A stretch of DNA of 42,946 nt from UHGV virus genome UHGV-1445076. One strand, given 5' to 3'. Numbering within the stretch: the stretch's first letter is position 1; every line of letters starts with the position of its first letter. The notes beneath the pieces are model-generated. The model saw nothing but the letters and a program-made list of their open reading frames with translations, was not told where the DNA came from and made no database searches. This stretch comes from a virus. Below, in pieces: positions 5,932 through 32,393 of the stretch. The translations under genes were made by a program, and so were the position numbers.

Positions 5932-8900
5932 CTACATGAAAACCTTTAATCCTCTGCCGCCTTTTGGATGTCCCGCAGCAAAGGCTTGGTTCCACATATC
6001 AGTCATTATAGATAACATGCTTCTTAAATATCCTGCCTGTTCGCGCAGTATGGTAACCATCGGATTGTCAGTTGAGGACATGTCTATGGACTGACTGCCC
6101 GACATCAAGGCTCGAATGGCAGCTATGTCCTCAGTCTGTTTTGCGACAAAGAAGCGTATTGAGTTAAGCAAAGCTTCAAGGGCTTCAGCCGTTTGTTCCG
6201 TTATGCCTTGTATACCCTGCTGCAGGGCTGAAAGACTTGATTCAGAATCCGCACCGGCACCAAACTCAAACCCGAGAGTATCTGCAATTGATTTCATGGC
6301 TTCGTCAAACGCTTTAAGCGTTTCTGGAGATTCCTCACGTATTTTCTCCAATGATTGTCTCAGACTTTGCAATGAAGACGATGAACCGTCATAATTCACG
6401 AGTGCATCGTCAAGAGGCTTCAGCAAACTGTTAATAATATTGTCAGCCACACGATAGCTGACTTGTTTTTTTAACAAATTATCAAAGACCTCATCCAATT
6501 GGCTTTCAAGTGCAACGAGCGTATCAGAACCTTCATTGAATGCGTCCACCCATGCATCCGCAAAAGCTTGTGCCGCAGATTTATAATTTGCCTTTGAGCC
6601 GAATCCTCCAATTTCCTCCTGTAATGTGTCTTGTGCCTTTTTTATTGCCTTTTCATTTTCCTCTATCTGTTCCCGCCACTCCTTTATGCGGTCCTTATCC
6701 TTTTTCTTCTTGTCCTCCTCCGCCGCAATCATAGCACGTAGGTTGGCGTTTTGCATCTCGAGATTATCCTTCAGCTTCTCTGTGTATTTATCAAGTTCTG
6801 TAATGCTCCATGCATCAGACTGTTCTTGTTCAAGGTTTTCATAGGCATGTTGGAGGCTCTCGACCTGCTCTGTCAGTCTTTTTATCTGACGTTCTTTTTT
6901 CTTGTCTCCGATATTGAATAATGAGCCTATGGTCTTAGTAATACCGCCAATGGTACTTACCCATGCCGAGGGGTTGAGCAATCCACCTGGCGCGACAAGT
7001 TGCCCTATGCCGCTGGCAGTCTGTCCCAATCCTCCTGCAATATCAGAAATGCTCTCGATTGTGTCACGGATGCCGTCAGACATTGTGCCGAAAACGTTTT
7101 CAAGGTTGGCGGATATTTCGGTTACTCCTGATGAAATGGCACCGAACCATAAACCGATATACTCAAACTGCCCTCCAAGAGTTTTGAGTATTCTTTGCCA
7201 CTTATTGAGTTCTTTCGTGACATTGGCAACGTTTTTCTCCTGCTTATTAACCTTTTTATTTATTTCGTCGTATTGCCTTTTCGCGTCATTTATCTCATTA
7301 TTGAGTTTTGTCCCAGCATCACCTCGCTTGTCACTGTCGGAGAGTTTTGCATATGCCTCGTTTAACTTGTTGACGTGTTCAGCCGCTTCATCGAGTTTGT
7401 CTTCAAGTTCTTCAAGTTTTTGCTTCTCAACATCATATGTTTTTTCAAGTTCTTTTATACTTTTTGAAGCATTGGAAAATTGATTGAGATTTTTACCAAA
7501 ATCTTTCAACGGATTGCGTTCCAGTATCTCATCGTCGATTTTGTTTATCTGTTCCTGAATGGCTTTAAGCTGTTCAGGGGACAGACCTTTCAGAGAACTT
7601 TTAAGGGCTTCAAGCTTCTCTCTCATGCGCTCCAACATGTGCGAGGACACATTGTCGAGATTGTTGAACATCTCAATGTATGTTTCGGTATTCTTAAACT
7701 GCTCCCATTCAAGATTTGCTGCTTTTTCTGCTTTTTGCCTGTCAAGGGCTTGTATATATTCTTCACGTTGCTCTGGCGTAAACTTCAGCTCTTTATTCTC
7801 AATTTTTGCGCGCTCATTGATATACCACAGGTCAAGTTTCAGGCGTTCGTCAAGCTGTTTGCCGTAATCCTTTAGGATGTCCTGAGTCTGTGCAAGGTTG
7901 AAATCGTTGATTTTCTTCGTGAGCTTATCGAACTGCTCTTCTTTCTGCTTAGTCCAATCCCCGCCCTGCTTGTCGGCATACAGGGAATCAAGCTGTTTCC
8001 TCGCATCCTCAAAACTTATTGTCAGATTGCCGAACATACGCTGTATTGCACCGTCGTCAAGCCCTTGCTCCTTCAGCTTTCTAAAGAGGTCGAGATTGGA
8101 GAATATGCGGTCAGCTTCCTTCTCGGCACCATCAAGCTGCTTTTTCAATTCGTCAGAGTCGATTTCTATCTCATACTTGCTTATCAGCTTCATCACCTCA
8201 GCCTTTTTCTTGAAGTCCGTTATCGTTGGCAAAAGCTGATTCAAGGCTTTTATCATACCTTCTTTAGTCGGCACGAACGAGTCTATGATACTCTTGTCCA
8301 TCTTCACATACTGAAGGTCGTCACGGTATTCTTCCAGGACTCTCTTTGCCGCGTTTTCATCGCTAATCATAGGCGTCAGTTTCTCATACACCTCCATCAT
8401 CTCTTTCAGAAGAGAAATCTGCTCCTGAAGGATGTCACGCTGCTGCTTGGCGGCAGACTTGGCACTCTTGGCATTTTCTTTAGAAAAAGGGTCAACACCA
8501 AGACTTTCAGACGTTTCAGTCGCGGCTTTCTTGTATTCAGCGATTACGTCTTTTAATGTCGAAACATCTATTGTTTCTCCACTTAGCCTTATATCTCCAG
8601 CCTTAAACAATTTTCTTATAGAGTCATCAACCTTAATTTGCTTGACATTCTTACCAACAGCCGATATTCGTCTTTCAAGCTCTTGCCAGTTCTTAGCCGC
8701 TTTCGCTGCGTCGTCACCCTTCTTAAGAAATTCGCTAAGAGCCTTTCCATCCGTGACTTCCTTTACAACAAGGCTGACTCCGTACTTTTTCTTGGCAAAG
8801 AAATTCGAGAGGTAGTCATCAACCCACGATACCTCCTGCTCCATAGTGTCCTTGTTTATCTTGACATTGATTCCAAAATGTCTGTAAGCCAACTCCCGGT

Positions 8901-11679
8901 CATATTGGCTCCAATCCTCTTCAGCTGCGACCTTATCAATAGCGGCTTTTATCTTAATCGGGTCGTTTTTGTATTTATCACGCAAGTCCCCGAACACTTT
9001 CTCGTACTCTTTCTCCAACGCAGCCCCGGCTTTCTCTACAGAATTGTAGGTGTCCACAATGTCTACCATCCCCTCCACTCCGTCCAGCCATCCTGGAGTT
9101 GCATAAATATTTCCTCCTAAATGCACATTCATTTGCTGCAAGGCTGCTGCCATTCGCCGCATATAATCAAGGTTCGATTCGCCGGCTTTCTGCCCTGCCC
9201 TTATCTCGTCAAAATATTTCTTTGTGGCTGCCGTTGCCTTGTCATAATTGGCATTCACTATAGCAACGGCTGTTTCTATTTTGGACGATTGTGAAAGAAA
9301 GTCAAGAACAGCGTTTTTGTAATCTTCACGGTCATCGTCAATTCCATCAAAGACCAATTTGCTGTTACTCTCGGCATAGTTCCGCCTGATTATCTCCAGT
9401 TCATCAACGAAATCCTTATATTTCTTCTCTACACTGTCAAACGTCTTGTTTAAATCCTCATCTTTTACCTCCTCCACGTTTATCTTTAATACCAGACCGT
9501 CTTTCGCCGCGCTGTCAATGAGCCTTTGCAGGGCAATCCTACGTTTGTCAATGTTTTTCTGCAAATCCTTTGTGTCAGCGGTTGTTGCCGTATCCGCGAG
9601 GTCATTATAAGCACTTGATATTTTCCTTATTTCTTCTCTTGTCTTTATGGTATCTTCCTGCGCCTCCTTGACTTTTTTATTATAATCGCTCCATTTACCT
9701 ATTGCGGTTGTTATCAATTCGATGGCAGCAAAAATTCCGAGTCCGACAAGAGATGTTTTTGCGATTGTCCCAAAAGATTTTACAGCATTTCCCATGCTGG
9801 TGAAAGCGTTGACAAACAAGGCTTTGTAACGCGCGAGACCTTTTGTGTCTGCTTGTGTAAAAGCGATTCCCAACGTCGAGTTCAGGAACATTGAACGTGC
9901 TTTGATTGTAAGAAGTATGGCTGCAAGTGCCTTGCCGACGTCCACAAGTTCCTCCCAATGTTCAAGCAATGCCGTCGCTCCATCTATCGCACTCTTCAAG
10001 AGACCTTCGTTTGCCTTGCCTATGGAATTTAACATGACATCAAGAGAGTCCTGGAAATTGCTTATCTTGCCCTGCAAGGTTTCAGCCTGTATCTCCTGCA
10101 TGTTGAAGAAGATGCCTCCGTCACTTGTCATTCTCTCAAAGACAGCTTCCACGTCTTGGAACGTCACCATGCGCTTGCTTATCATGTCAACAATTTGCGC
10201 TGTGGTATATGCCTCACCTTTGACCTCCTGAAAATAACGTTGCAGTTCCCCGTACATATTCACACCTGCCTCCGTGAACTGGCGTACTTCCGAACCGCGC
10301 AGATATGCGGCAGCCTTTACCTGTCCGTAAGCAAGAATAAGTCTCTGCATATCCACGCCAAGACCTGCAGAGACATCAGCAAGGCGTTTGGTGGTATCAA
10401 ACAGTTTGTCTGATTCTATACGGTAGGCGGCAAGCTGCCGTGTATACTGAACCAAGTCCTTTATGCGAAAAGGCGATTTAACGGCAAGTTCAACCGTCTT
10501 GGCAAAAATTTCGTCAGCCTGTGTCTTGTTTTGCAGTATCGCTTCAAGTGAGCGTTGTGACATCTCGAACTCCCCACGTACCGTAGCGACATTTGCAATA
10601 TATCCACGTATCTGCGACACTGAGAACAGGAGCGCAAACGACCGTGACAGCTGCCCGGTTATATCGAACAGACGACGATGCTCGTTCACAAGGTTTTTGC
10701 TTCCCGCTATAGCCTCGTTGTTTGCGGCATTCAACTGCTTGATACGGTCATTAAGGGTACGAAGCTTGGATGCATACTCACTGTCTGTGGCAGACAGTGC
10801 TGCGCGAGCCTCCTGCAAGTATTTAATGGCTTGGGTACGTCGGTTTATCGTATTTGCGTCCTCAGCAAAACTTAACGCTCCCGCATATGTGGTATTACGG
10901 GCATAGTTCTGTTGCTGGTATATTTTAGATTGGGCTTTTGCCGCTTTTTCCTCCGACCTGGCTCTCTTCTCGGCTTCTTTTGCCGCAGCAGCAGACGACC
11001 GTTCCATATCGCGGTAATATTCTGACATTTTCCTCAAAATGTCAGACTGTCGCATGTCCGCGAGCGTCTGCCCTTTCATGTCATTTACGTTGGCTGAACT
11101 CCTCCGTAGCTGTTTATAGGCAGCGTCAAGAGCAGTGATTTGTCGCATAAGCGCATCAGCAGTCTTGGATGCTTCATTAAGTCCCTTTTGCCCAAATTCG
11201 ACATTGTCCTTTTTACCTGTAGATATATACTTCCAATACAGCTCCAGCTCTACGCGGGTATCTTTTAATTTTTTCCATAGAGCATCTAATGTAACACTGA
11301 TGTTCTTCAGTCCGGGATCGCCTTGTCTGTCTCTTGTAGCAGATGTGAGCCTCTCTATGTTTTCCGCTGCTCTCACTATACTTGTGTTCAGCTTCTCCGC
11401 CTGCGTTGCCGCATTTCCGAATTTCGCCCCGCTCATGGCATTAAATGCCGCAGAGGCGTTGACCGACGATTTCTCCACTTCCTTCAGCTTTTGTATGACA
11501 GCGTCAAGCACCGAGGAAAAACGGGTTGTCCCATTTACCATTTTACCAAAAGACCTTCCGGAAATATCACCGGTATCATAAATCCTCTTTTGTAATTTTG
11601 CCAACCTTTCATCAGCATCTTTAAATGAGTCAAGTACGCTTTCAGGTATTACAAGTGCGCTTCCAATTTCTCCGCTCAT
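5932..11679 (-). CDS. tail tape measure protein (1915 aa)
   Basis: Single 5.7-kb ATG ORF just downstream of the chaperone pair; very long, largely alpha-helical coiled-coil-like composition with Gly-rich hydrophobic segments. Confidence 0.75.
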   Translation of the reverse strand: MSGEIGSALVIPESVLDSFKDADERLAKLQKRIYDTGDISGRSFGKMVNGTTRFSSVLDAVIQKLKEVEKSSVNASAAFNAMSGAKFGNAATQAEKLNTSIVRAAENIERLTSATRDRQGDPGLKNISVTLDALWKKLKDTRVELELYWKYISTGKKDNVEFGQKGLNEASKTADALMRQITALDAAYKQLRRSSANVNDMKGQTLADMRQSDILRKMSEYYRDMERSSAAAAKEAEKRARSEEKAAKAQSKIYQQQNYARNTTYAGALSFAEDANTINRRTQAIKYLQEARAALSATDSEYASKLRTLNDRIKQLNAANNEAIAGSKNLVNEHRRLFDITGQLSRSFALLFSVSQIRGYIANVATVRGEFEMSQRSLEAILQNKTQADEIFAKTVELAVKSPFRIKDLVQYTRQLAAYRIESDKLFDTTKRLADVSAGLGVDMQRLILAYGQVKAAAYLRGSEVRQFTEAGVNMYGELQRYFQEVKGEAYTTAQIVDMISKRMVTFQDVEAVFERMTSDGGIFFNMQEIQAETLQGKISNFQDSLDVMLNSIGKANEGLLKSAIDGATALLEHWEELVDVGKALAAILLTIKARSMFLNSTLGIAFTQADTKGLARYKALFVNAFTSMGNAVKSFGTIAKTSLVGLGIFAAIELITTAIGKWSDYNKKVKEAQEDTIKTREEIRKISSAYNDLADTATTADTKDLQKNIDKRRIALQRLIDSAAKDGLVLKINVEEVKDEDLNKTFDSVEKKYKDFVDELEIIRRNYAESNSKLVFDGIDDDREDYKNAVLDFLSQSSKIETAVAIVNANYDKATAATKKYFDEIRAGQKAGESNLDYMRRMAAALQQMNVHLGGNIYATPGWLDGVEGMVDIVDTYNSVEKAGAALEKEYEKVFGDLRDKYKNDPIKIKAAIDKVAAEEDWSQYDRELAYRHFGINVKINKDTMEQEVSWVDDYLSNFFAKKKYGVSLVVKEVTDGKALSEFLKKGDDAAKAAKNWQELERRISAVGKNVKQIKVDDSIRKLFKAGDIRLSGETIDVSTLKDVIAEYKKAATETSESLGVDPFSKENAKSAKSAAKQQRDILQEQISLLKEMMEVYEKLTPMISDENAAKRVLEEYRDDLQYVKMDKSIIDSFVPTKEGMIKALNQLLPTITDFKKKAEVMKLISKYEIEIDSDELKKQLDGAEKEADRIFSNLDLFRKLKEQGLDDGAIQRMFGNLTISFEDARKQLDSLYADKQGGDWTKQKEEQFDKLTKKINDFNLAQTQDILKDYGKQLDERLKLDLWYINERAKIENKELKFTPEQREEYIQALDRQKAEKAANLEWEQFKNTETYIEMFNNLDNVSSHMLERMREKLEALKSSLKGLSPEQLKAIQEQINKIDDEILERNPLKDFGKNLNQFSNASKSIKELEKTYDVEKQKLEELEDKLDEAAEHVNKLNEAYAKLSDSDKRGDAGTKLNNEINDAKRQYDEINKKVNKQEKNVANVTKELNKWQRILKTLGGQFEYIGLWFGAISSGVTEISANLENVFGTMSDGIRDTIESISDIAGGLGQTASGIGQLVAPGGLLNPSAWVSTIGGITKTIGSLFNIGDKKKERQIKRLTEQVESLQHAYENLEQEQSDAWSITELDKYTEKLKDNLEMQNANLRAMIAAEEDKKKKDKDRIKEWREQIEENEKAIKKAQDTLQEEIGGFGSKANYKSAAQAFADAWVDAFNEGSDTLVALESQLDEVFDNLLKKQVSYRVADNIINSLLKPLDDALVNYDGSSSSLQSLRQSLEKIREESPETLKAFDEAMKSIADTLGFEFGAGADSESSLSALQQGIQGITEQTAEALEALLNSIRFFVAKQTEDIAAIRALMSGSQSIDMSSTDNPMVTILREQAGYLRSMLSIMTDMWNQAFAAGHPKGGRGLKVFM

Positions 11680-12419: not shown

Positions 12420-12516
12420 ATAGTTGTGATTTTATCGAAAAGGGCGGCGGTAATGTCTGCCGCCGCCCCTGCCAAATAATAATTGTTATCCCTGAAAACC
12501 AATCAAACCGCTCCTG

Positions 12517-14778: not shown

Positions 14779-15957
14779 TTAATCCGTGTCGGCTGTTGAT
14801 GTGTCTACAATCAGATGGTCAGGGAACTCGATGAGAGCCGGACAAGCTGACATCATCAGGTCTGTATGCCATTCCTGATATTGTCCATTGTTAAGTGTCG
14901 TATTCACAAGGGTAGCCAACCCGTTGTTTGTCTGGGCAAACACCTTGGTTATAGCCTTGGAGCCATATTTCTCGAACATTATCTGGTCAAGATTTTCAGT
15001 GTACTCAAACTCGACAGCGTCTCCGGCTGGACGAAGCACCGCCACGTTCTCTTTCCATCCATGGATGAAAGTGTCTGATGTGTGAGTTTTGTTACGCTCT
15101 TTCTCAGTAACGACCTCAATAGGCGAAACACCCTGATAGTCAATCACAGCCTGCCGGAAAGCGACTTCTGTGAACGACTGCCCTTCTGTAGTAGCCTGAT
15201 AAGCCAGCGGATTCTTTTTGTAGTCTGCGATAAGTTCCTTAACCTGTGCATTTTCGAGAATAACCTCGAAGTACATCTTATGCGGTACCTGCCAAACGAG
15301 CGCACCGGTATAGTTGCGCTTCTCACGGTATGCGTCCTCTATGTTCTTCATTTGCTCAAGCAGCTTACAGTCAGCCGCAGTCCATATTTTCTCACCCGCC
15401 TTGACAAAATTCTCCGCAGGGATGTCTGCCTTATGTAACGGAGCTTTAATGCCACGTCCGATAGTACTGTAATCTATCTTTCCTGTGGTCATAAGTTGCG
15501 CGGTCATATAATTCATAGTGGCATCAGCAGAATCTTTCTGCATCTGTACTTCATGTACCCACTGTGCTACGATGTCTGCATCGTTACCGAACAGTTCAAA
15601 CTGACGGATGCGGTACTCACGTTCCATGGCAGTCTCCACAAAACCTGGGGCGATGAAATCGGGAATGGTCGCGCTGTAGAAACTCAGACCTTCCTTATCC
15701 ATCTGGTTGCTGTCACCAAGCGGAGCACGCATGTCCATAAGCGGAGCGGCTTCCGCCTTACGTGCTTTGACCGTGAACGTGGCTACACCACTGTTATCAG
15801 TAGGCGTCGGTGCATAGGCTCGTCGTCCCTGCGTCAGATACCAACCATAATTTGTATAAAGGATACCTTCCGTATCAATGAATGTCTGCAAGAAACGCCT
15901 GTTACTCTTGTCGGAAAAGAATTTGGCGTATCTTGAACTATTAAAGTCATATTTCAT
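14779..15957 (-). CDS. putative major capsid protein (392 aa)
   Basis: ATG ORF preceded by AGGAGG (plus CCTCCT 15966-15971); size and position after the scaffold-like gene. Fold not verified. Confidence 0.5.
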   Translation of the reverse strand: MKYDFNSSRYAKFFSDKSNRRFLQTFIDTEGILYTNYGWYLTQGRRAYAPTPTDNSGVATFTVKARKAEAAPLMDMRAPLGDSNQMDKEGLSFYSATIPDFIAPGFVETAMEREYRIRQFELFGNDADIVAQWVHEVQMQKDSADATMNYMTAQLMTTGKIDYSTIGRGIKAPLHKADIPAENFVKAGEKIWTAADCKLLEQMKNIEDAYREKRNYTGALVWQVPHKMYFEVILENAQVKELIADYKKNPLAYQATTEGQSFTEVAFRQAVIDYQGVSPIEVVTEKERNKTHTSDTFIHGWKENVAVLRPAGDAVEFEYTENLDQIMFEKYGSKAITKVFAQTNNGLATLVNTTLNNGQYQEWHTDLMMSACPALIEFPDHLIVDTSTADTD

Positions 15958-16760: not shown

Positions 16761-17408
16761 TTACATCCGTCTTTCACTTTTGAGAATGTCAACCACATCG
16801 GCAAACTCATCTTTCGGATCTGTCGCGCCGCCTCCGGCTCGTCGCGGTGTTCCACTGGTGTCAACGTGCGATTTCGACTTATTGTAAAGCGTGAGAGCAT
16901 CGTTTGTCTCAGCTTCGGTGTCTGTATCAGCGTTGACGTTGAGTTTCTTTAGATATGAGGCTGCCCAATCCTCATCCTCAATGCCCTTTTCCTTGAACAT
17001 GGACAACAATTCCGCACGTTTCTCCTTGGCGACCTTCTCAGCCTTGTCTTTCTCACGCTCAGCCTTCAGTTCCTTAATTTCTTGCAGAAGCGTGTCGAGC
17101 CGGTCGTCTTGCTTGTCATCGCGTTTGTCATCGCGTTTGTCATCTTGTTTTGTGTCGGGATGTTCCTTTTTCCAAGTGTTCACGAAATCGGAATTATCCT
17201 TGCGGACGTTGCCGTCAATCTCTTCGAAATCAGGAAGATACTCTTTGACAACATCATCAAGTTCGGTTTCGTCATCACTTTTCTCCAGCCTTTTGTAGAG
17301 CCTTTCCACATTGGCTTTCAGTGTCCTCTCGCTCATCGCAAGTTTTTTGCCGTTGGGCGTGAGTTTAGCTTTCAGTGCTTCTGTTAGCTGTTCGCTCGTA
17401 AACTTCAT
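16761..17408 (-). CDS. putative scaffolding protein (215 aa)
   Basis: Highly charged, helical, coiled-coil-like protein with a KRDDKRDDKQDD repeat; first gene of the leftward structural operon, next to the capsid genes. Confidence 0.5.
   Translation of the reverse strand: MKFTSEQLTEALKAKLTPNGKKLAMSERTLKANVERLYKRLEKSDDETELDDVVKEYLPDFEEIDGNVRKDNSDFVNTWKKEHPDTKQDDKRDDKRDDKQDDRLDTLLQEIKELKAEREKDKAEKVAKEKRAELLSMFKEKGIEDEDWAASYLKKLNVNADTDTEAETNDALTLYNKSKSHVDTSGTPRRAGGGATDPKDEFADVVDILKSERRM
17114..17144. repeat. 12-bp tandem repeat (2.5 copies) inside the scaffold gene
   Basis: TGTCATCGCGTT at 17114-17125 and 17126-17137, with a partial third copy; encodes the KRDDKRDD repeat on the minus strand. 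Confidence 0.5.
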
Positions 17409-17486
17409 ATATATAGTGTTTTAATGTTAACTCATGATGCAAATTTATGATTGTTAGTCGTTTAGATGAAATCATTAAAGCTTATA

Positions 17487-17504
17487 ATTGGACATATGTC
17501 CAAT
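17487..17504. promoter_or_regulatory. perfect 18-bp palindrome in the divergent scaffold/terminase intergenic region; candidate operator
   Basis: ATTGGACATATGTCCAAT equals its own reverse complement; located in the 147-bp AT-rich gap between the two divergent operons. Confidence 0.4.
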
Positions 17505-17555
17505 ATTGTTGAAAATCAAAGCATTATCTAAATAGACATAAAGTATATTTGCAAT

Positions 17556-19178
17556 ATGTCAGACAGTCAAAGTAACATAAAGGACATTACTTGGAAACCG
17601 AATTCTCCATTCCAGCATATGTTCGCCAGCACCAATGTAGACGTGGTGTTCGGCGGCGGTGCAGCGGGTGGCGGCAAGTCGCTGGGCTTGCTTCTTGCCT
17701 TTGCCGAGCCACTGATGACCGACCCTGATTTCCGATGCCTGATAAGCCGCCGAAGCCTTGGCAACCAAAAGGCGGGCGGCGGTTTCGTGGAGAAATTCAA
17801 GCAAGTGTTCGGTACTGACTATATAAAGGTACGCGAGTCGGACAGCCCGCGCATCAGCTTCCCCATCGGCACGTTCTGCGATTTGACGTACATCGACGAC
17901 TCCAATATGGATAAGTTGCGAGAGCGTGCAAAAGGATGGGAGTATGACGCGATAGCCATAGACGAGTTGACCGAGATGTCATGGGAGGCGTTCACATACG
18001 TGATGACCCGTAACCGTGGGCAGAGCAAGACGTTTACCGGGAAATTCTTTGCCACGTTCAACCCGAAGCGCAGCCATTGGTCAAGAACATTCCTTGACTG
18101 GTATGTAGGATTAGATGGCTATGTAAATCCCGAACGTGACGGTGTTGTAAGATATTTTTACATAAACGGGGCTACGGTTAAGGATGTCGTCTGGGGTGAC
18201 ACGAAAGAGGAAGTCTATCGGAAATGCCGCATAGACATAGAAAACAAATTAAAAAGGTTAGACGGCAATTTTTCTTATGAACACCTGATAAAATCGTTCG
18301 TGTTCTATCAGGGCATGGTGTCACAAAATAAAGACTTGATGGAACGCAACCCCGGCTATATAGGCAGCGTTGCCGCTTCAGGTGGCAATATGGCACTGTC
18401 AATGCTTGGGAACTTCAACGCTGACCCCGACGAGGACGTAGACATACCGATACCAAGCGACAAGGCAAGAGACTGTTTTATGGCAGACCCTGCCGTTAAC
18501 GGAGACCGGTGGGTAACTGTGGACTTGGCTGATTATGGTACAGACAACATGGTGGCATTGGCATGGAACGGTTTCCATGTCACCGACATACTAATAGTAA
18601 GCCACACAACTCCTAAAGAGAACGCGCAAAGAGTAAAAATTTTCGCGGATAAAAACGAGACTCCGGATAGCCACATAATATTTGACGGCACCGCAGGACG
18701 GTATTTCAATGACTACATACCGGACGCAATAGCTTACCTCTCATCAACAAAGCCAATGGGGTTATACTACCTGACGGCAGCGACGATGAAAGACCTGTGT
18801 TATCTCCGCCTTGTAAACATGATAAACAGAGGGCAAATCACTTTTGCAGATAACGTAGCGCAATCCACATACACACATCAGAACCTGAAGTTCAGAGTTA
18901 CAGTAGAGAATGAGTTTCAGGATGAGTGCGCTGTCGTAAGATTTATCGACATGACTTCAGGAAAGAAAAGACTTATGAACAAGAAACAGATGAACTTACG
19001 GCTTGGGTACGGACGTTCAATGGACTTGTTGGACCCCTGTGCTATAAGGATGTATCCATGTGTAAATCTCGAATACGGGACAGAGATAGAAGAAGGTTTC
19101 TCGAGAGGGAGGGATGAAGAAGTTGAGAGTAAAACATACGTCAGACGTAGCATATATGACTCCACATTGTGGAGTTAA
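17556..19178 (+). CDS. terL: terminase large subunit
   Basis: Walker A VVFGGGAAGGGKS near the N-terminus, Walker B-like AIAIDELTE, size 540 aa, first gene of the rightward operon. Confidence 0.85.
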   Translation: MSDSQSNIKDITWKPNSPFQHMFASTNVDVVFGGGAAGGGKSLGLLLAFAEPLMTDPDFRCLISRRSLGNQKAGGGFVEKFKQVFGTDYIKVRESDSPRISFPIGTFCDLTYIDDSNMDKLRERAKGWEYDAIAIDELTEMSWEAFTYVMTRNRGQSKTFTGKFFATFNPKRSHWSRTFLDWYVGLDGYVNPERDGVVRYFYINGATVKDVVWGDTKEEVYRKCRIDIENKLKRLDGNFSYEHLIKSFVFYQGMVSQNKDLMERNPGYIGSVAASGGNMALSMLGNFNADPDEDVDIPIPSDKARDCFMADPAVNGDRWVTVDLADYGTDNMVALAWNGFHVTDILIVSHTTPKENAQRVKIFADKNETPDSHIIFDGTAGRYFNDYIPDAIAYLSSTKPMGLYYLTAATMKDLCYLRLVNMINRGQITFADNVAQSTYTHQNLKFRVTVENEFQDECAVVRFIDMTSGKKRLMNKKQMNLRLGYGRSMDLLDPCAIRMYPCVNLEYGTEIEEGFSRGRDEEVESKTYVRRSIYDSTLWS

Positions 19179-19193: not shown

Positions 19194-19718
19194 ATGATAA
19201 AGAAAGACGACATAAAGGTTATACTCAAAAGCGCACGGCAGGAGTGGGCTACAGTGAGTGATAAAGACATAGCCTTTGCTGTGCTGTGCGATACGTTCGC
19301 CGATAAATCTGTGGCGTACAAAATGGCGTACGGCAGGACTGCAACGGATGCTGAAGCACACTATCGTGCTCCGAGGATGATAAAATTACGGGATTTGCTT
19401 GAACCTTTCGGCATAGGCTCGGTAAACGAAGAACTTATAACACGTGAGCAGAACAAGACGGAACTTATACGTTTGCTGAAAGAGATAAAGGCTCTTGCGG
19501 AGAGTAAGAAGATTGACGCAAAGGACGCTGTGAAAATGGAGGCAGACATCCGCGTTAAACTAAACGATAAGTTTGAGATGGAAGCCAGCCAGACGCAAAA
19601 ACGCATAATAATCGTGCCCCAAAAGCACGACATGATATGTCCACACACAAACAAAGAGTGTACCTACATGCCGACAAAAGAAGCATGCTTGAAGTATTAC
19701 GGACTTAAAGACGAATGA
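19194..19718 (+). CDS. hypothetical protein (174 aa); weak resemblance to small-terminase-like DNA-binding proteins
   Basis: ATG ORF between terminase and the putative portal; no diagnostic motif. Confidence 0.3.
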   Translation: MIKKDDIKVILKSARQEWATVSDKDIAFAVLCDTFADKSVAYKMAYGRTATDAEAHYRAPRMIKLRDLLEPFGIGSVNEELITREQNKTELIRLLKEIKALAESKKIDAKDAVKMEADIRVKLNDKFEMEASQTQKRIIIVPQKHDMICPHTNKECTYMPTKEACLKYYGLKDE

Positions 19719-21211
19719 AACGCAGTATGAACAGAACACGTGAGGAGATTGTAGAATGGCTGTTGTCCCATCCGGAAGAAATGCTGATGAAGAAGCCGTT
19801 TACAAGAGGTAGCAGTACATATTCTGTGTACGACAACAACTGTGGGGCGGAAGAGAATGTGTCCGCCTTACGTCGGGCTGTGCTTCCAAACGTAATGAAG
19901 ACCATTGTCACACAGGACAAGTTCATGAAAGAACTTGACCCGGACAGCCATGAGGTACTTTTTGACGAAAATATGCCGTCAATTTGTGTCAAAGCCAATG
20001 ACGGAGCATTCTATGAAATAAAGTTCAAGCGTACCGCTCTTGCCTTTCAAGAAAGAATAAGACAAAAAAAGACACTTGCATTATGCGGCAATCCCAGAGT
20101 ATTTACATTGCATGACAGCAATCCTTCCGAAACATTGAAAAAAAACTTTGCTGACCTGAAATGGCATTGGACAGAGCGCAATCAGGACGGATTGGGGACA
20201 AAGGCTGTATACGGGCAGATGGGACTTGGCGACATCGGACTTCTGATGTATTTCAACTATAAAGGTGAAATCAGGGGGCGGATAATATCATACGAGGACG
20301 GATATATCATCATATCACACAACGACGACAACGGTGACCGGGTGATGGAATGTGTATATTATGCCGACGGTGACAACGTGCAGCACATAGACGCATACGA
20401 CGACACGAACCTGTACCGTCTGACGAACGTTGACGGTTGGCATATAGAGAGCCAAGAGGCTCACGGCTTCAGTGAGATACCGCTTATAACAAAGCGCGGT
20501 GATGTCGCATGGAACAACGTACAGAATCTGATAGAAACATTTGAGATTATTTACAACATCTTTACTGTAATAGAAAAGCGTCATGGATGGGGGATTTTAT
20601 ATCTCAAAGGGCGTTTTAAGGAAGACGCCCGTCAGATAGCAGGTTCAATTATGCTTCAAGACGCATCGATTGACGGCAAGGGAGACGCAAAGTTCCTCTC
20701 TCCACCTACAAATGAAGGAATGCTTAATGCGATGCAAGACCTTCTTGACAAGATTCAGATAGGAGCATCCGTAACATTCATCCTTCCCAAGGATGTTAAG
20801 TCAAGCGGGGACATCTCCGGTCTGGCAATGCAAATAACACGTTCTTTCGATATAGAAGGTGCGGCTCAAAACGTAATAGAATGGCAGAATTTTGCGGATA
20901 AACATGCGAGACTTTTCAAGGAAGGATTGGCTAAAGAACTTGTAAATAAAGGTGAGAATCCGAATGCGGTAACAGAATTTGCCAGAATGAAAATATCCTG
21001 CAAGTTTAAAATGTGGCAGCCGTTCGATGAGAATACTTATAACCAGATGCTTTGCACTCTGAAAAGAGCCGGTATCATTTCCACTAAGACGGGAATTGAG
21101 AAAAATACCGTTTCCACTCCTGATGAGGAAATGAGATTGGCTGAAGAGTCAAAACGGAACAAGACTACGGATGGCACAAACAAAAATGCACCTATAAACA
21201 ATGTAGCCTGA
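19715..21211 (+). CDS. putative portal protein (498 aa)
   Basis: Size and position directly downstream of the terminase region, coupled by a 4-nt overlap; no motif-level confirmation. Confidence 0.4.
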   Translation: MKRSMNRTREEIVEWLLSHPEEMLMKKPFTRGSSTYSVYDNNCGAEENVSALRRAVLPNVMKTIVTQDKFMKELDPDSHEVLFDENMPSICVKANDGAFYEIKFKRTALAFQERIRQKKTLALCGNPRVFTLHDSNPSETLKKNFADLKWHWTERNQDGLGTKAVYGQMGLGDIGLLMYFNYKGEIRGRIISYEDGYIIISHNDDNGDRVMECVYYADGDNVQHIDAYDDTNLYRLTNVDGWHIESQEAHGFSEIPLITKRGDVAWNNVQNLIETFEIIYNIFTVIEKRHGWGILYLKGRFKEDARQIAGSIMLQDASIDGKGDAKFLSPPTNEGMLNAMQDLLDKIQIGASVTFILPKDVKSSGDISGLAMQITRSFDIEGAAQNVIEWQNFADKHARLFKEGLAKELVNKGENPNAVTEFARMKISCKFKMWQPFDENTYNQMLCTLKRAGIISTKTGIEKNTVSTPDEEMRLAEESKRNKTTDGTNKNAPINNVA

Positions 21212-23733
21212 TGGAGAAGAAGAGCTTATACATAATGCGTGACACAAACGGAGTGAAAGAATATTTTCCTTCGTCTACAGAAAAAGCGGTCATAGGTACA
21301 TACACCTATGACGCACAACGCATGGACGGCGCACCGACCTTCACGGCTACATTGAAATTCCCAAGATGTCTTGACAATGAATGGACATTAAACGAGTATA
21401 TAGAATTTGGCGGAGAGAAGTATTATATAAGGCAAAAGCCGTCATCATCCAAAGACAATTCTGAGATAACATACAAACATGAGGTCACATTTGTAAGTGA
21501 AAGGGAGATACTTGAAAACGTGTATTTCCTTGATGTGGTGACAGAAGATACTGAAGCCCAATATAAAGACCGATACAGAAGCAACACATCTAAAGTACAT
21601 TTCTTCGGTGATGTACACGAGTTTATTGCCCGGCTCAACGATTCATTGATTTACAGCGGTCTATATAATAAAGACACACAAGAAGGTTTCCATATTGTCA
21701 TTGACGAAGGCATAACTTCTGAGGGCAAAGATGTCAGTATAGAAGACAAGTTCATTGCAGAGGCTCTACAGGATATATATAATGTATATGGACTCGCCTA
21801 TTATTGGACAGGGAAGACCTGCCACGTAGGATATACAGAGAATGTAATAACAACTCCGATAGAATATGGTAATGACAATGCTCTGTTGTCTATTCAGAAA
21901 ACAAATGCCAATTACAGGATTATCACGAGGATAACCGGTACTGGAGGCACAAAAAATTTGCCATGGTACTATCCAAACATGAGTGCGGAGGGCAACGCGA
22001 GTTTCGACACAGAGAACATTGACAAATCTGAAGTAGCAGATATCTCCTTAAATGAGATACTAAAATACAACAGTTCCCCATATACCGCATATAGACTTAA
22101 AAAGGTGTCAAACACGGATGCCAGCGCAGACATCGGGCAGACTGCTCCTTTTTATAATGCATATAGCCCCACAGTAATAAGCAACAGGGAGGCTACAGAC
22201 ATATTCTATTTTGGAACAGGTATAGGCAACACCTATATCACGATATCTTTCAGACTGAAAATAAATGCACAAGAGGGAGACAAACTTCGGTTTGTTTTCA
22301 ATGAATCCTTTTTGACTTTCAGAAAAATCAGCGGTGACGCAGATTTATCACTTTCATGGCAGAAAGTATCGTCAAATAGCTACGGAGGGGACAGAAACCT
22401 TAAAAATACAATAAGTATTGGAATATGGAGAGACGACTATAATCCGAATGAGGATGATTCTATAAGTGATAAAATAGAAATATTGTCAGGTTGGAAGGAC
22501 TATGAATATACCTTCCATGCCAGCGGATGGTTTCAAGTTGTGATTAAAGGGACTGCTTACGCCATTTTCTCAGGAAGCGGAGCGACCAACAGCCAGGCGA
22601 CTATAGGAATGACGTTAAATGCAAAATCATCCATAACATATCAGAAAAGTGGCGGAGAACTGTATTATTTCTCATATGGAGATGGGAATAACATCGCATA
22701 CAGTAAAAGCGGAATAACGCTGTCTGATGTAAACAATGTTCCGTATGCGCCTTCGCATTTGGATTTCTCAGGCGGTGAATGGAATGTTGTGGAGGACAGC
22801 GGTGACCACACACCAGCCATAATTAATATTACAGGAAGAGAGTGGATAACTCCCTCTCAGAGCCTGATGCCCTCTATATACAGAGAAAGTGGAGGAGCGG
22901 AACGCTACTATAATGCAGTCAATAATACATATGAAGATGAATCAGGAAATAAATATATATTTAATAATGTATACAATGAATTGAACCCTCACGAAGGGAC
23001 GACTTCATTTGAAGATATAGTCCCGACAATAAAAGGGATAAAAAACATTCAAGGTCAGTTGATAGGTGAAATAGCTGACATACGGTTTGATACGGATGAT
23101 AGCGATGTCCTTAAAGACAATAGTGACGAATACCTTCATTCATATTTCTATATAAAACTACATGTATATAACGGAAGTGGAGGCTTCAATATTTTTGAGC
23201 ATGCATTAGAAAGCGAAGAGGCTGCAATAGAGATGACAAGCGGCAACTGCGCCGCATGCCGTTTCGTTATCGGGGTGGACAAGTATGCCGATGGTGACAG
23301 ATACAAATTCTATAACCCTGTCATGACAGACGCACAAGGCAATCTTCGCAAGGTCAACAGTTCTAATGCGGACAAATATGAAGGAGACTATATCCTGCCT
23401 TCACGTGATACAAACAGTTACGTTTCACGCCAGCAGGACACCAGCGAATATGAAGTATGGATAGCCGTAAAAAAAGAAACAGATACCTTTGGTGTCATTA
23501 TGCCGAACGCGGCACAAGGATATCGTCCGTCAATAGGCGATACATTTGTCATAACTGGCATTTCTCTTCCTGAATCCTACATACGGGAAGCGGAAAAAAG
23601 ACTGGATGCGGCTCTTATTGCTTACATGAAAGGGAATAATGATGAGAAATTCACATATTCAATAAAATTTTCCCGTGTATATCTGGCATTAAATGAGGAC
23701 TTCACCTCATTGCTGAATGAAAATAAAATATAA
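21211..23733 (+). CDS. large virion protein of uncertain role (840 aa)
   Basis: 2.5-kb ATG ORF, beta-rich Thr/Ser/Asn/Tyr composition, between the putative portal and the fibre genes. Confidence 0.35.
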   Translation: MEKKSLYIMRDTNGVKEYFPSSTEKAVIGTYTYDAQRMDGAPTFTATLKFPRCLDNEWTLNEYIEFGGEKYYIRQKPSSSKDNSEITYKHEVTFVSEREILENVYFLDVVTEDTEAQYKDRYRSNTSKVHFFGDVHEFIARLNDSLIYSGLYNKDTQEGFHIVIDEGITSEGKDVSIEDKFIAEALQDIYNVYGLAYYWTGKTCHVGYTENVITTPIEYGNDNALLSIQKTNANYRIITRITGTGGTKNLPWYYPNMSAEGNASFDTENIDKSEVADISLNEILKYNSSPYTAYRLKKVSNTDASADIGQTAPFYNAYSPTVISNREATDIFYFGTGIGNTYITISFRLKINAQEGDKLRFVFNESFLTFRKISGDADLSLSWQKVSSNSYGGDRNLKNTISIGIWRDDYNPNEDDSISDKIEILSGWKDYEYTFHASGWFQVVIKGTAYAIFSGSGATNSQATIGMTLNAKSSITYQKSGGELYYFSYGDGNNIAYSKSGITLSDVNNVPYAPSHLDFSGGEWNVVEDSGDHTPAIINITGREWITPSQSLMPSIYRESGGAERYYNAVNNTYEDESGNKYIFNNVYNELNPHEGTTSFEDIVPTIKGIKNIQGQLIGEIADIRFDTDDSDVLKDNSDEYLHSYFYIKLHVYNGSGGFNIFEHALESEEAAIEMTSGNCAACRFVIGVDKYADGDRYKFYNPVMTDAQGNLRKVNSSNADKYEGDYILPSRDTNSYVSRQQDTSEYEVWIAVKKETDTFGVIMPNAAQGYRPSIGDTFVITGISLPESYIREAEKRLDAALIAYMKGNNDEKFTYSIKFSRVYLALNEDFTSLLNENKI

Positions 23734-26700
23734 TCAAGAAGAGCATCTTCTGTATGTCAGCAACTATACTTGTAAAGCCGATGATAGCATACTTTATGAA
23801 ATAAGTGTGGATTTAACAGACACCCTGACCGTGTCTCAATCCTCATTCAGAGCACAGCTCGATTCCATAAAAACAGAGATACTTACATCCCTGACTTATG
23901 GCATGCGTGGTGACATTTTAGCACAATGCGCGAAGTATTTTCTGCGGAAAGACAGTCCGGACACAGCCTTGGATATTATAACATTCCTCAAAGGGCTGCT
24001 TGTGGGAGACGGAGACTACGGCATAGATGCGGACGGTACCGCACGGCTGAAGAAACTTCTTGCCGACGAAGCCACAATGAAAACGCTGACCGTGACAGGA
24101 AGGGCACATTTCTTCGAGCTTGTCATAGATGAGCTGAACAGCGTCGGAGGTCAACTGATACTGTCCGCTGCTAACTGCACGGTACGCTCTGTCGAAAGAA
24201 TAAGCGGAGCATGGCGTCTGTGGTGGCTGGCGGAGGACAGCGACGGCAGAGCCGTGCAGAACATGTGGAAGGTCGGAGACCAGGCTCTGGCAATGACATC
24301 CAATCTTGCCGAGGGGACATCATATGATGCAGGAAACAGACTATGGTGGAGACTTGTCACGGCAACAGGGAGCGGAACACGGAACATTGACGGTGAGGAC
24401 AGAAAGTGCCATTGGATTGAAGTGTCTGAAGCCACGTGCGCGGCTGACAGCCTTGAGCCTGCAGAGGGTGACAGCGTTTGTCTGTGCGGACACCGTGGTG
24501 ACGACACAGCGCGCAGCCATGCGATAATAATAGCCGCCCACTCCACTCCGGATACCGAGCTGGAGAGTCCGTCATTCGCGCAATACAACGGAATCACAAG
24601 TTTTTCTCTAAGCCAGTACCGCACGACATGGTTCGCGGCTAACGGCAATAAGATAAGAGGCGAGCTGGATGTGGACACTTCCGGTCTTGTCAGCTACACG
24701 CACCTTGCATGGGGAAACGGTCCGGACGACTGGACAAAGGACAAATCCCAGAGCACGGCAAAAGACTGGCTCATGCTCGGCATATGCACAGACCGCACGG
24801 AGAGCGACGTGGCTCTCGTCTACAGCGACTATGCATGGTCAAGGATTAAAGGTACTGACGGAAAGACCACATACTTCCATGTGAAATATTCTTCAAACGA
24901 GAACGGAAATCCCATGACAGAGACGCCCAACCTCTACATCGGCACATACGTTGACTTCACTGAGGCAGACAGCAACGACCCCTCGGACTACACGTGGTCA
25001 CGCTTCCAAGGATATGACGGGGAGCAGGGGATACCGGGGAAAAACGGTACGGACGGAAAGACAAGCTACCTTCACATCAAATATTCCGACGACGGGGGAA
25101 AGACGTTCACCGCCAGCAACGGTGAGACACCGGGTGCGTGGCTCGGGCAATGCGTAGACTTCAACTCATATGACCCGACAAGCGTTACCTCATATAAGTG
25201 GACACGGATACGCGGTGAGGACGGAGCGGACGGAAGTGACGGTGAACCCGGCACGGACGGGCAGGACGGATTCTCGTGGGCACTTGACCCTGCCGCCATA
25301 ACATTGGAGGCTGACAGTGACGGTGTGGTGAGCATGCAGGATGCGACATCACGTCTGCGCGCATGGCTCGGCACGCGCGAGATGACTGTCACCATTACCG
25401 CCATAGAGCCAGTGCACTGTCTTGCGTCACGCAACGGGGCGCAGGTTACAATAACCGCAATAGGGACATATACGGCAGACTGGGGAGGTTCGGTGCCGTA
25501 CGGAGCGGGATGGGTGCAGATTACGGCACAGGCAACACTGGGAGGAGAGACCCGCAGTGTGAGCTGCCGCCTGTCCTTCACTGTATCGTCCATGGCACTC
25601 TCATCGCAGATTAAGGCTGAGACGGACAGCATAAGCCTTAAAGTCGGCTATCTTGGGGCAAAGGACGGAAACATGGTGACCACTCCTGACATATTCCTGA
25701 CAGGGAACGGGAACAAGACATACACAATCGGGGACATGTCAAGCCTGCGCGGAAAGACAATAACGGTATCATGCCTTGTCAAGACCGTATCCGCGGTTCC
25801 GGCGGCATCTGGCAACAGACGTATCGGCATGGAGCCCATGGTACGGTATGCCGACGGCAGCACGCAGTATCTCGGAACATGGAGGCAGATAACATCCACG
25901 GACACGTTCGAGGGACGCATAAGCTCCACACACAGGATACAGGATAAGGCTGTGGCGTCGGTAGAACAGTGTAACCTGTATATACAGGGCATATCATCAG
26001 GATACTCGTCCGTATCGCGTCCAAAGATAGAGACAGGTGCGGACGCGACAGACTGGGGACTCAGCGCGGAGGACAGGCTTAAAAGACCGAATCTTCTTCC
26101 AGGAACATCGGACTTCAGCCAATGCACCGTACAGGATACCGTAGAGGCAGGAGCATACACGACACCTTACGGAGAAAAAATAAGCGTGGCACACGGTGTG
26201 AACGAAGCCGGGACATCATACAAGGACGTCATCACATGGCGCAACGTGGTGCCCGAGCCGGGCGTACAGTATACGCTCTCATTCTGGGCGCGCGGCACAG
26301 GCAGCATCGGCTCGTACTTCTATCCGAACTGCACCGACTGGGTCACAAGTCCGGGGACGAAGAACCAGACAGGTGTGACAGACGGATTCGTACAGTTCAC
26401 GCTTGAAAGCGGATGGAACCGCTACCAGGTGACATGGAGCACACGCAACGATGTAAGCGGAGCGAAAAGTCTCATAGCGGCACGGCTCATGCCGGACAGT
26501 TCTGCACAGGGAGAGATCTGGATATGCGGAGTGAAGCTGGAGAAAGGCAGCGAGGCGACAGACTGGCGTTCGGAGACAATCACGCACGACGAGCTGCAGG
26601 CGACAGGAATAGACATTGAGCACAAGCGCATAAAGGTCACTGCCGACAACTTCGAGATACAGAACAACTCAGGCGAGACTGTCACCACTGTCGACGAGGC

Positions 26701-27499
26701 GGGCACCCTTACAGGTGTGATGCTCCGCACTATGGACGAAGGACAGGGGCATGTGGAGATAAAGGGAGGACTGATTGAGGTAAAGAACCCTAACGGTGTG
26801 ACCAACATCAAAATGGGATATAACGGCTCATACATGGTACTGTCATATTATGACAATGACGGTACGTTCCTTTATGACCTCGGACCGTGGGGACTGTCCG
26901 GCAAGGATGTCTCGGAAGAACGGTGGGAGACCAGCAGCAAATACGGACGCCTGCAGCTGACAGGGACCACATTCTCCACCGTAGGCGACATCGTTGGCAA
27001 CAAACAGATAATGAACACCATATTCCAATATGGTCATGTGTACACGAAAACACCTTTGTACATGTATCTTGCAGGGCGCGTAAACGACACATATCTCAGC
27101 GGTGACTACGCCTCCACTCCGGAGATTGCAAGAGCCGCGAACGGCAGATGGTTCATGGAGCAGGGTAATGTGACCACGGCACAGGCTGTCACAGGAATGT
27201 GGGCGCAGGACAATCCGGAATCGTTCATGATAGGCTCGCCTATGGACACACCGCCAATGGACTATACGCGATATGAAGATGACTATGCGGAAAAGGTGGA
27301 TTTCTCCAGACAATGGTGCTCGCGCAATGTGTACAGATTCTCGAACATCGGAATCGTACAACCGGGAAGCGGCACCGTATACTACGGCAGCATGATAACG
27401 ACAACAGCCGTATACATGAATTATGACAGGGTGCAGATGATACAGATTAATCGCATTGACGATGATGACACGGACACGAACGGAAACATATATTTATGA
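23717..27499 (+). CDS. putative tail fibre / receptor-binding protein with collagen-like repeats (1260 aa)
   Basis: Three ~57-aa tandem repeats each ending in Gly-X-Y triplets (GTDGKTTY, GKNGTDGKTSY, GEDGADGSDGEPGTDGQDG); markedly GC-rich compared with neighbours. Confidence 0.5.
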   Translation: MKIKYNQEEHLLYVSNYTCKADDSILYEISVDLTDTLTVSQSSFRAQLDSIKTEILTSLTYGMRGDILAQCAKYFLRKDSPDTALDIITFLKGLLVGDGDYGIDADGTARLKKLLADEATMKTLTVTGRAHFFELVIDELNSVGGQLILSAANCTVRSVERISGAWRLWWLAEDSDGRAVQNMWKVGDQALAMTSNLAEGTSYDAGNRLWWRLVTATGSGTRNIDGEDRKCHWIEVSEATCAADSLEPAEGDSVCLCGHRGDDTARSHAIIIAAHSTPDTELESPSFAQYNGITSFSLSQYRTTWFAANGNKIRGELDVDTSGLVSYTHLAWGNGPDDWTKDKSQSTAKDWLMLGICTDRTESDVALVYSDYAWSRIKGTDGKTTYFHVKYSSNENGNPMTETPNLYIGTYVDFTEADSNDPSDYTWSRFQGYDGEQGIPGKNGTDGKTSYLHIKYSDDGGKTFTASNGETPGAWLGQCVDFNSYDPTSVTSYKWTRIRGEDGADGSDGEPGTDGQDGFSWALDPAAITLEADSDGVVSMQDATSRLRAWLGTREMTVTITAIEPVHCLASRNGAQVTITAIGTYTADWGGSVPYGAGWVQITAQATLGGETRSVSCRLSFTVSSMALSSQIKAETDSISLKVGYLGAKDGNMVTTPDIFLTGNGNKTYTIGDMSSLRGKTITVSCLVKTVSAVPAASGNRRIGMEPMVRYADGSTQYLGTWRQITSTDTFEGRISSTHRIQDKAVASVEQCNLYIQGISSGYSSVSRPKIETGADATDWGLSAEDRLKRPNLLPGTSDFSQCTVQDTVEAGAYTTPYGEKISVAHGVNEAGTSYKDVITWRNVVPEPGVQYTLSFWARGTGSIGSYFYPNCTDWVTSPGTKNQTGVTDGFVQFTLESGWNRYQVTWSTRNDVSGAKSLIAARLMPDSSAQGEIWICGVKLEKGSEATDWRSETITHDELQATGIDIEHKRIKVTADNFEIQNNSGETVTTVDEAGTLTGVMLRTMDEGQGHVEIKGGLIEVKNPNGVTNIKMGYNGSYMVLSYYDNDGTFLYDLGPWGLSGKDVSEERWETSSKYGRLQLTGTTFSTVGDIVGNKQIMNTIFQYGHVYTKTPLYMYLAGRVNDTYLSGDYASTPEIARAANGRWFMEQGNVTTAQAVTGMWAQDNPESFMIGSPMDTPPMDYTRYEDDYAEKVDFSRQWCSRNVYRFSNIGIVQPGSGTVYYGSMITTTAVYMNYDRVQMIQINRIDDDDTDTNGNIYL
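24692..25280 (+). repeat. three ~57-aa tandem protein repeats with collagen-like Gly-X-Y runs
   Basis: Repeats begin SYTHLAWGNG.., TYFHVKYSSNENG.., SYLHIKYSDDGGK.. and each ends ..Y(T/K)W(S/T)R(F/I)(K/Q/R)G + (G-X-Y)n. Confidence 0.55.
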
Positions 27500-27521
27500 T
27501 AAAAAAACAGGAGGACAGTAT

Positions 27522-27629: not shown

Positions 27630-27645
27630 AGAAAGGAGACAGACC

Positions 27646-29722: not shown

Positions 29723-29727
29723 AGAAT

Positions 29728-30384: not shown

Positions 30385-30401
30385 TTTAAAAACCAAAGAC
30401 T

Positions 30402-32390: not shown

Positions 32391-32393
32391 GAA

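Follow-up and report, generated by a model that had tools for sequence, protein, structure and literature searches.

Several phage activators bind upstream of late or terminase promoters and switch on the morphogenesis genes, as do the C protein of Mu, p4 of phi29 and RinA of staphylococcal phages; p4 works in a divergent promoter region. At class I CRP-dependent promoters, the activator dimer is centred near −61.5. The closest functional analogue of the element described here, not homologous to it, is that of the Ogr/B/delta proteins of P2 and 186, a dyad (TGT-N12-ACA) upstream of late promoters served by the host polymerase. The P2-like phage Smp131 has a single 18-bp dyad that is assigned to two divergent promoters at once, PP′ and PO′ (PMC3931495). 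The present work deals with a perfect 18-bp palindrome in the UHGV virus genome UHGV-1445076, a stretch of 42,946 nucleotides that we call the window. The palindrome lies in a gap of 147 bp (17409-17555), the point from which the leftward and rightward late gene strings of this phage diverge. The feature is real and non-random, and a large family of uncultured prophages of the gut has conserved its architecture. It is probably the shared upstream site of a dimeric phage-encoded regulator, standing between two divergent sigma-A promoters and commanding all virion, packaging and lysis genes. A single literature search retrieved no description of late-gene control in Bacteroidales tailed phages, or of such an element.

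The likeness to P2 and 186 is one of plan. There, too, late operons diverge, the terminase and portal genes lying opposite those for scaffold and capsid; a small phage activator is made earlier, as proposed here, and one dyad can serve both directions. The details differ. The window dyad reads ACA (17492-17494)-N2-TGT (17497-17499) inside ATTGG...CCAAT, and does not contain TGT-N12-ACA. The window promoters are of the Bacteroidetes −7 type, and there is one site per genome against four in P2. The candidate reader discussed below is predicted to carry a helix-turn-helix (HTH) of the DnaA-domain-IV kind, not a Cys4 zinc finger, and specificity diversifies strongly between relatives. No Ogr-like CX2CX22CX4C activator was found, the sole small Cys4 open reading frame (ORF), at 39880-40089 (minus strand), having the pattern CX2C-X30-CX2C. 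This zinc-ribbon protein of the early region (69 aa, with a basic tail) is Ogr-like in format only; as an Ogr analogue it was set aside, since it was not found in relatives and matched only PHROGs of unknown function.

With class I CRP-dependent promoters the window shares a twofold-symmetric site, suited to a dimer, whose centre is about 60 bp ahead of the start and outside the core promoter, and a weak upstream promoter element. The protein family, the sigma type and the phage-specific nature of the regulator set it apart, and a contact with the alpha C-terminal domain of the polymerase is only assumed. To Mu C, phi29 p4 and RinA there is no homology. They have other folds, their sites differ in position and number, and none of the three comes from Bacteroidetes. 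We see in the window a control element of known type in a new form, outside the P2 Ogr family because its sequence, promoter type and candidate fold are different.

A symmetric site at equal distance from two predicted promoters

The sequence ATTGGACATATGTCCAAT at 17487-17504 is, as an earlier note on this DNA had claimed, an exact palindrome with CATATG at its centre. Symmetry stops at 18 bp, the next positions outward (17486/17505) being A/A. About 0.16 perfect palindromes of this length are calculated for 43 kb of random sequence; the present one is the longest perfect spacer-less palindrome of the window, the runner-up reaching 14 bp (25975-25988). Even with up to three mismatches allowed, it is the sole match in the window (0.01 expected). 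The search for additional copies or half-sites which the earlier note had advised returned none above chance in the window or in the upstream DNA, and exact half-sites are absent elsewhere from the 43-kb window and from 8.4 kb upstream of it (51 kb for this phage). Within the tape-measure gene, at 11021-11046, two 11-nt arms form a perfect inverted repeat around a loop of 4 nt.

Promoters of Bacteroidetes combine TAnnTTTG, centred at −7, with TTTG near −33 (PMC7366714). The −7 element of this sigma-ABfr type is present on both sides of the palindrome, and its position is kept in relatives. Exactly 39 nt lie between the palindrome and each box, and 52.0 bp between the dyad centre and the centre of each box; the dyad centre would stand at about −60 relative to both predicted starts. 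Leftward transcription is predicted to begin at about 17435-17436, with a leader of some 27 nt to the ATG at 17408, close to the 23 nt of a typical 5′ untranslated region (UTR) in Bacteroides thetaiotaomicron. The predicted rightward start, at about 17555-17556, falls at the ATG of the large terminase (TerL). This start codon comes 4 nt after the G of the −7 box, and the gap measures 4-6 nt in almost all relatives, which supports the view that the boxes are real promoters with fixed starts. Since the box is centred at −7 and only 4 nt separate it from the ATG, transcription would start at or next to the codon, making the TerL mRNA leaderless by prediction. A conserved leaderless terminase mRNA would be unusual in a phylum where such mRNAs are rare: just 3.7% of the 5′ UTRs of B. 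thetaiotaomicron measure less than 10 nt. In two relatives (L061 and L064, in our numbering of loci) TerL would start at GTG.

The −33 element was defined as a TTTG some 19-21 nt upstream of the −7 box. With a spacing of 17-23 nt it is found in 4 of 32 related promoters, and in neither promoter of the window. This lack is consistent with dependence on an activator.

Conservation of the layout and diversification of the dyad

Relatives were gathered with TerL from IMG/VR (43 loci), genomes (7 loci) and metagenomes (80 loci), and with the tape measure from IMG/VR (80 loci, with 10-kb flanks), to which 10 loci with exact tape-measure proteins were added. Throughout the clade in which TerL is at least about 48% identical, the same layout recurs: a −7 box on the minus strand, 39 nt, a 9-bp half-site, 0-3 bp, a second 9-bp half-site, 39 nt, and a −7 box on the plus strand. 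The dyad centre is 51.5-54 bp from each box in some 18 dyad classes drawn from more than 100 loci, which hold to the geometry of the window within 1-2 bp. Where the dyad has a central insert of 2-3 bp, the boxes shift apart and the 39 nt from half-site to box are kept; it is therefore this distance, not that from box to box, which is conserved. Alignment of 36 promoter halves leaves two conserved blocks and no others, the half-site (consensus ..GTCCAAT-A) and TAnnTTTGC; the AT-rich spacers between them are unalignable. When TerL identity falls to 42-48%, the boxes are still 105-107 bp apart, and the dyads midway between them are short or imperfect (L011, L013, L045).

Nearly all of the approximately 18 classes are symmetric. 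The window belongs to GGACATATGTCC, and among the other classes are GGATAGCTATCC, GGATATATATCC, GGTCAGCTGACC, GGTCA-TG-TGACC, TGTTACGTAACC, GGACACGTGTCC, TCGCCA-CA-TGGCGA, TTGCA-TAG-TGCAA and TTATCA-TAG-TGATAA. Across the family, conservation of the dyad is highest in its outer bases, TATTKG...CMAATA. How far the two arms change together was measured on 17 distinct 18-mers against 500 shuffles. Arm cells are paired in 91.2% of cases, against 76.8 ± 2.0 in the shuffles, and 25 cells carry a double change where 9.7 are expected, neither value being reached in any of the 500; 5 of 10 positions have changed on both arms. Sliding the partner by 1-3 columns brings pairing down to 31-41%.

Within a class, by contrast with this variety, the dyad hardly moves. 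The 21-bp dyad of the TATTTATCA-TAG-TGATAAATA class is invariant in 20 unique sequences, and a single dyad position varies among the 28 unique sequences of the ATTTGTTACGTAACCAAT class, while spacers and even some box positions are polymorphic in both. To judge from these alignments, the dyad is under purifying selection within a class. L003 and L112/L113 have TerL proteins 91% identical and spacers that are visibly homologous, yet their inner dyads are completely different.

Two departures from the rule may be mentioned for themselves. L061 and L064 have imperfect dyads that mix two half-site types in mirror image (GACTG|CTATC and GATAG|CAGTC); inversion of the centre, or recombination between half-sites, would give such a result. 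Upstream of the scaffold-like gene in the more distant relatives L180, L184, L202 and L210, divergent −7 boxes stand 31-33 bp apart with no central dyad, and in L180 AGGACA...TGTCCT flanks the DNA between the boxes; the gene layout is unchanged here, but its control architecture is another one.

A candidate reader of the dyad

The earlier note had named two HTH proteins of the window as possible binders, and neither withstood comparison with relatives. Homologues of the product of ORF 5530-5877 are confined to two other contigs (L137 and L138), and most relatives lack it; phages of one dyad class differ in gene content at this very place, after the tape measure. The ORF (minus strand) starts with TTG, a shorter ATG start being likely, and ends in an HTH-looking C-terminus, ISEKIGLGRQTIAFILNH. 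In L161 another small HTH gene, with a weak Bac_DnaA_C match, occupies its place and precedes a conserved six-gene module opening with a Gly-rich 317-aa protein. The second, 33076-34131 (plus strand), is a mobile gene, 87-100% identical in IMG/VR contigs unrelated to the phage (these are not relatives by TerL or tape measure); its product joins HTH_3 to Peptidase_M78, as in ImmA/IrrE-like proteins, and it has the look of a horizontally mobile module. Adjacent proteins were also considered as readers of the inner bases. The scaffold-like protein does not covary with the dyad at its N-terminus, and it was rejected together with the 174-aa protein that follows TerL, the N-terminal regions of both being nearly identical in phages whose dyads have the unlike centres TTACGTAA, GTCAGCTGAC, GAATGCACTC and GACTGCTATC.

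Comparison of the DNA beyond the tape measure revealed instead a family of proteins of 113-123 aa, present in every dyad class that could be checked. In the window-type phage its gene lies outside the window and belongs to a long co-directional array of early-type genes; 14-19 kb separate the gene from the dyad. An AlphaFold2 (AF2) model of the 117-aa member (predicted local distance difference test, pLDDT, 83.8; predicted template modelling score, pTM, 0.78) was compared with the PDB by Foldseek. The top eight matches, and ten of the top 11, are DnaA DNA-binding domains, 1j1v_A among them. Template modelling (TM) scores of the DnaA matches are 0.59-0.63 by query length and 0.70-0.75 by target length, with a root-mean-square deviation (rmsd) of 2.4-2.9 Å for the top three; 3pvp_B gives 0.63/0.75 and 2.4 Å. 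The protein is thus predicted, on its model, to be a stand-alone DnaA-domain-IV fold with an HTH. Sequence comparison gives no significant match: a profile search of PDB sequences returned no match, DnaA included, and Bac_DnaA_C (PF08299) came no higher than E = 0.009-0.01, 16 bits against a cut-off of 31.5.

In four classes the predicted recognition helix (residues 81-92) follows the dyad. Window-type dyads go with GMN(V/A)(S/T/A)SVIKKVRKV (L224, L304, L307, L310), TATTTATCA-TAG-TGATAAATA with ..RNIIRSV.. (21 or more cross-referenced contigs, in which the protein outside the helix falls into three subfamilies), ATTCGCCA-CA-TGGCGAAT with TCNNIMKSA (L227, L228), and ATTGGTTACGTAACAAAT with NEKSAMRCV (L311, L313). 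When, to control for relatedness, proteins about 60% identical outside the helix are compared, phages with the same dyad share 9 of 13 helix residues (7 of 7 in the core), those with different dyads 4-5 of 13. A prediction set beforehand, that the NNIMKSA contig 152029 would bear a ATTCGCCA dyad, held, in what is a weak test since close relatives are concerned. Within IMG/VR the exact ATTCGCCA-type dyad is confined to contigs 152029 and 107012, the same pair whose protein carries NNIMKSA.

DnaA itself offers a partial parallel. Its domain IV binds the 9-bp DnaA box (PDB 1j1v, 3pvp), and both the predicted fold and the length of the half-site are alike. Because that domain binds its box as a monomer, each of the inverted 9-bp half-sites would accommodate one copy of the candidate. 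Unlike DnaA, the latter has no AAA+ or other DnaA domain and no significant sequence similarity. The half-site ATTGGACAT is unlike the DnaA box TTATNCACA, the sites are inverted and abutting rather than arranged in origin arrays, and the role would be in transcription, not replication. The DnaA-domain-IV-like protein may well be what reads the dyad, a tentative assignment that falls somewhat short of probable.

Mode of action and rival explanations

We are fairly confident that the dyad is the site of a transcriptional regulator, and incline slightly to the view that this regulator is an activator. The process might be as follows. An early phage protein, most likely the DnaA-domain-IV-like one, would occupy the dyad, near −60, as a dimer in which each monomer takes one half-site of 9 bp, mirroring the 9-bp DnaA box. 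The bound dimer would then recruit or stabilise the host RNA polymerase at both of the promoters devoid of a −33 element, by class I-type activation, and the head/tail and terminase/portal/fibre/lysis operons would be switched on together. All statements on function are inferred from sequence, including where transcription starts, that a protein binds, which protein it is and whether it activates or represses. The earlier note had proposed the palindrome, given its place between divergent late promoters, as a strong candidate for an operator bound by a dimeric regulator. Its conserved position, the covariation of its arms and its invariance within a class support the core of that idea well. 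The site, however, lies some 43 bp upstream of each −7 box and does not overlap the promoters, which makes it activator-like rather than a classical occluding operator.

Several observations weigh against this proposal. The choice of activation over repression comes down to the position of the site and the absent −33 element. TAnnTTTG is not enriched in the window (31 matches for 28 expected), so that a single occurrence proves nothing and the case for the promoters rests on comparison with relatives. Dyads are imperfect (6/9) or very short in L061, L064, L011, L013 and L045, and still more distant relatives lack the module. The symmetry of the arms could be kept in part by quasi-palindrome template-switch mutation instead of selection. 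As for the candidate reader, Foldseek gives a probability of 1.00 to the best six matches, but E-values of only 0.03-0.8, and the Pfam HTH matches at residues 50-91 (Sigma70_r4_2, Bac_DnaA_C) are all below threshold. The correlation of helix with dyad covers four classes and is partly confounded by descent, the candidate proteins of both NNIMKSA phages being about 95% identical. Finally, the genomes are mosaic: when the divergence of the candidate reader between two close phages was ranked, several structural proteins proved equally divergent.

The rival that survives best makes the dyad the site of a dimeric repressor which shuts both promoters and keeps the late genes of the prophage silent. 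The phages are indeed temperate, several relatives being found in host contigs of 100-360 kb; both −7 boxes are perfect consensus and might be constitutive if unrepressed, and immunity repressors typically have palindromic sites that diversify fast. Yet the dyad stops 39 nt short of either −7 box, clear of every core promoter element. A repressor could nevertheless act from there, by trapping RNA polymerase through contact, by oligomerising outward or by blocking an activator. It would have to do so with a single site, no auxiliary operator being found in 51 kb, and at promoters that lack −33 elements; moreover, the candidate reader is encoded among early lytic-type genes and not in a lysogeny module. 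Repression therefore seems to us improbable.

The earlier note had also entertained a packaging signal, and this is not favoured either: that the terminase should recognise the dyad as a symmetric pac or cos site just upstream of its own gene is, in our opinion, very unlikely. In lambda, HK97 and SPP1 the packaging site adjoins the terminase genes, and here the dyad is 52 bp upstream of the TerL start codon. Twofold symmetry would suit a nuclease dimer, and a conserved protein, for instance the 174-aa one, could be what reads the conserved outer bases. But packaging gives no reason for a distance of 39 nt to both boxes across some 18 classes. The 174-aa protein has no detectable small-terminase signature and, as seen above, its N-terminal region does not covary with the dyad; TerL itself is 89-91% identical in phages with completely different dyads. 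No checked contig ends at the dyad, all running through it; these are assemblies, and the evidence is weak.

Symmetry might also be kept with no dedicated phage reader. Quasi-palindrome correction is a known mutational process, and template switching of this sort could maintain the symmetry of a site for a host factor, or of a structural DNA element forming a cruciform or hairpin. Outer half-site bases shared by many classes, and neighbouring proteins that do not covary with the dyad, would fit such a view. A conserved host factor is difficult to reconcile with inner 8-10 bp that differ between close relatives and are invariant within a class. As a single strand the site folds into no more than a weak hairpin (−6 kcal/mol, 7-bp stem, z = −2.3), which makes a cruciform unlikely. 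We give this explanation very little credence.

A role at the RNA level can be dismissed, as the site is upstream of both predicted starts and has no Rfam match at E ≤ 1, no terminator-like site was found (a sigma-70 scan gave nothing relevant either), and the gap 17409-17555 contains no conserved small ORF. Nor is this the non-canonical LexA SOS box of Bacteroidetes, GGA-N5-TCC or CTAA-N5-TTAG with a critical spacer length (PMC8565304): the window dyad has GGA-N6-TCC, the wrong spacing, and other classes have no GGA/TCC.

To return to activation from a shared upstream site, the module would be a compact, sequence-defined switch, with one 18-bp site, two promoters and few candidate proteins. 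It is present in many assembled prophages, one of them in a sequenced Segatella copri genome, and belongs to tailed phages of Bacteroidales, which dominate the human gut. The S. copri strain of GCA_021347565.1 has a dyad of the ATTGGTTACGTAACAAAT class. Were the DnaA-domain-IV protein the reader, a new fold would join the phage late activators and the rapid diversification of the site would be explained; orthogonal regulator/operator pairs and a bidirectional inducible promoter would become available for engineering Bacteroidales. The most extended version of the proposal takes this protein as a family-wide late activator, two copies of which occupy one 18-21 bp dyad, helix and dyad having co-diversified into mutually exclusive classes, with a leaderless terminase mRNA downstream. 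Taken as a whole it is doubtful. If true, exclusive specificity classes would amount to a ‘late-gene immunity’ insulating co-resident prophages or satellites from one another.

Hosts and relatives

Among cultured phages there is no DNA match to the window, and the closest isolated TerL is 25-28% identical. Relatives were found in assemblies of Muribaculaceae, Dysgonomonas, Bacteroides and Segatella copri. Their frequent location on host contigs of 100-360 kb in these Bacteroidales assemblies identifies them as Bacteroidales prophages, and we take the hosts of the family to be gut Bacteroidales of the Segatella/Prevotella type. The nearest relative of the window, IMG/VR contig 3300045988_148138, is about 99% identical to it, yet differs by indels: it has some 3.8 kb extra between TerL and the HTH-M78 gene (window side compared, 19200-33076), and the window gene 41397-41951 was not found in it.

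Gene layout around the gap

The features of the locus are collected in Table 1. As the earlier note had it, and as gene annotation bears out, the gap separates a leftward capsid/tail operon from a rightward terminase/portal/fibre/lysis operon. The leftward string encodes a charged protein and a protein of 250 aa, then the major head protein and head/tail genes, the tape measure coming last; the rightward one encodes TerL, the 174-aa protein without family, the portal, large fibre-like proteins and an endolysin.

Table 1. Position of the palindrome, the predicted promoters and the genes discussed in the text
Feature	Position	Strand	Remarks
18-bp perfect dyad, proposed binding site of a dimeric regulator	17487..17504	none	two inverted 9-bp half-sites, ATTGGACAT / ATGTCCAAT
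−7 box TAAATTTG, predicted leftward promoter	17440..17447	−	perfect TAnnTTTG, Bacteroidetes sigma-A type
−7 box TATATTTG, predicted rightward promoter	17544..17551	+	perfect TAnnTTTG
Left spacer	17448..17486		39 nt, AT-rich, sequence not conserved, no −33 TTTG
Right spacer	17505..17543		39 nt, AT-rich, sequence not conserved, no −33 TTTG
First gene of leftward late operon	16761..17408	−	215 aa, charged, coiled-coil-like
Major head protein	14779-15957		leftward operon; phrog_29
Tape measure	5932-11679		leftward operon; 1915 aa
Large terminase (TerL), first gene of rightward late operon	17556..19178	+	phrog_979, E = 3.9e-50
Conserved 174-aa protein between TerL and portal	19194..19718	+	putative small terminase, by position
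Candidate reader, 117 aa	L134:6404-6757		outside the window, about 1.7-2.0 kb before its position 1

The first leftward gene has no family match and is scaffold-like by position alone. The 174-aa protein, tried as a small terminase, finds no support in Pfam, PHROG, PDB sequences or fold: its AF2 model is helical (pLDDT 72) and matches no fold.

The gap had been described as the only sizeable non-coding one. It is in fact the sole divergent one, other non-coding gaps of the late region running from 98 to 183 bp (32211-32393, 183 bp; 27500-27612; 12420-12516). That at 32211-32393, after the endolysin, holds TATCTTTG at 32349-32356, about 38 nt ahead of the following ATG; the endolysin gene may be the last of the rightward late operon, and 32394-34723 may have a promoter of its own. 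Outside the window, a stretch of 2.2 kb poor in ORFs (L134:2070-4305) separates leftward genes from the start of the rightward early operon and could be a regulatory or non-coding RNA region.

The TerL of the window has no intein. In many relatives (L086-L130, L010, L012, L313:1242-3902) an intein follows about residue 41, in the Walker A region; the TerL match then begins at residue 42 and the promoter module is found some 1.1-1.3 kb further upstream. The TerL of L313, for example, is 886 aa long and contains Pfam Hom_end and LAGLIDADG_3. Finally, GC-rich islands at 24001-27000 and 4001-5000 (0.55-0.57, against about 0.45 elsewhere) fall within the gene for a fibre-like protein of 1260 aa and the ORF for the Gly-rich protein of 317 aa.

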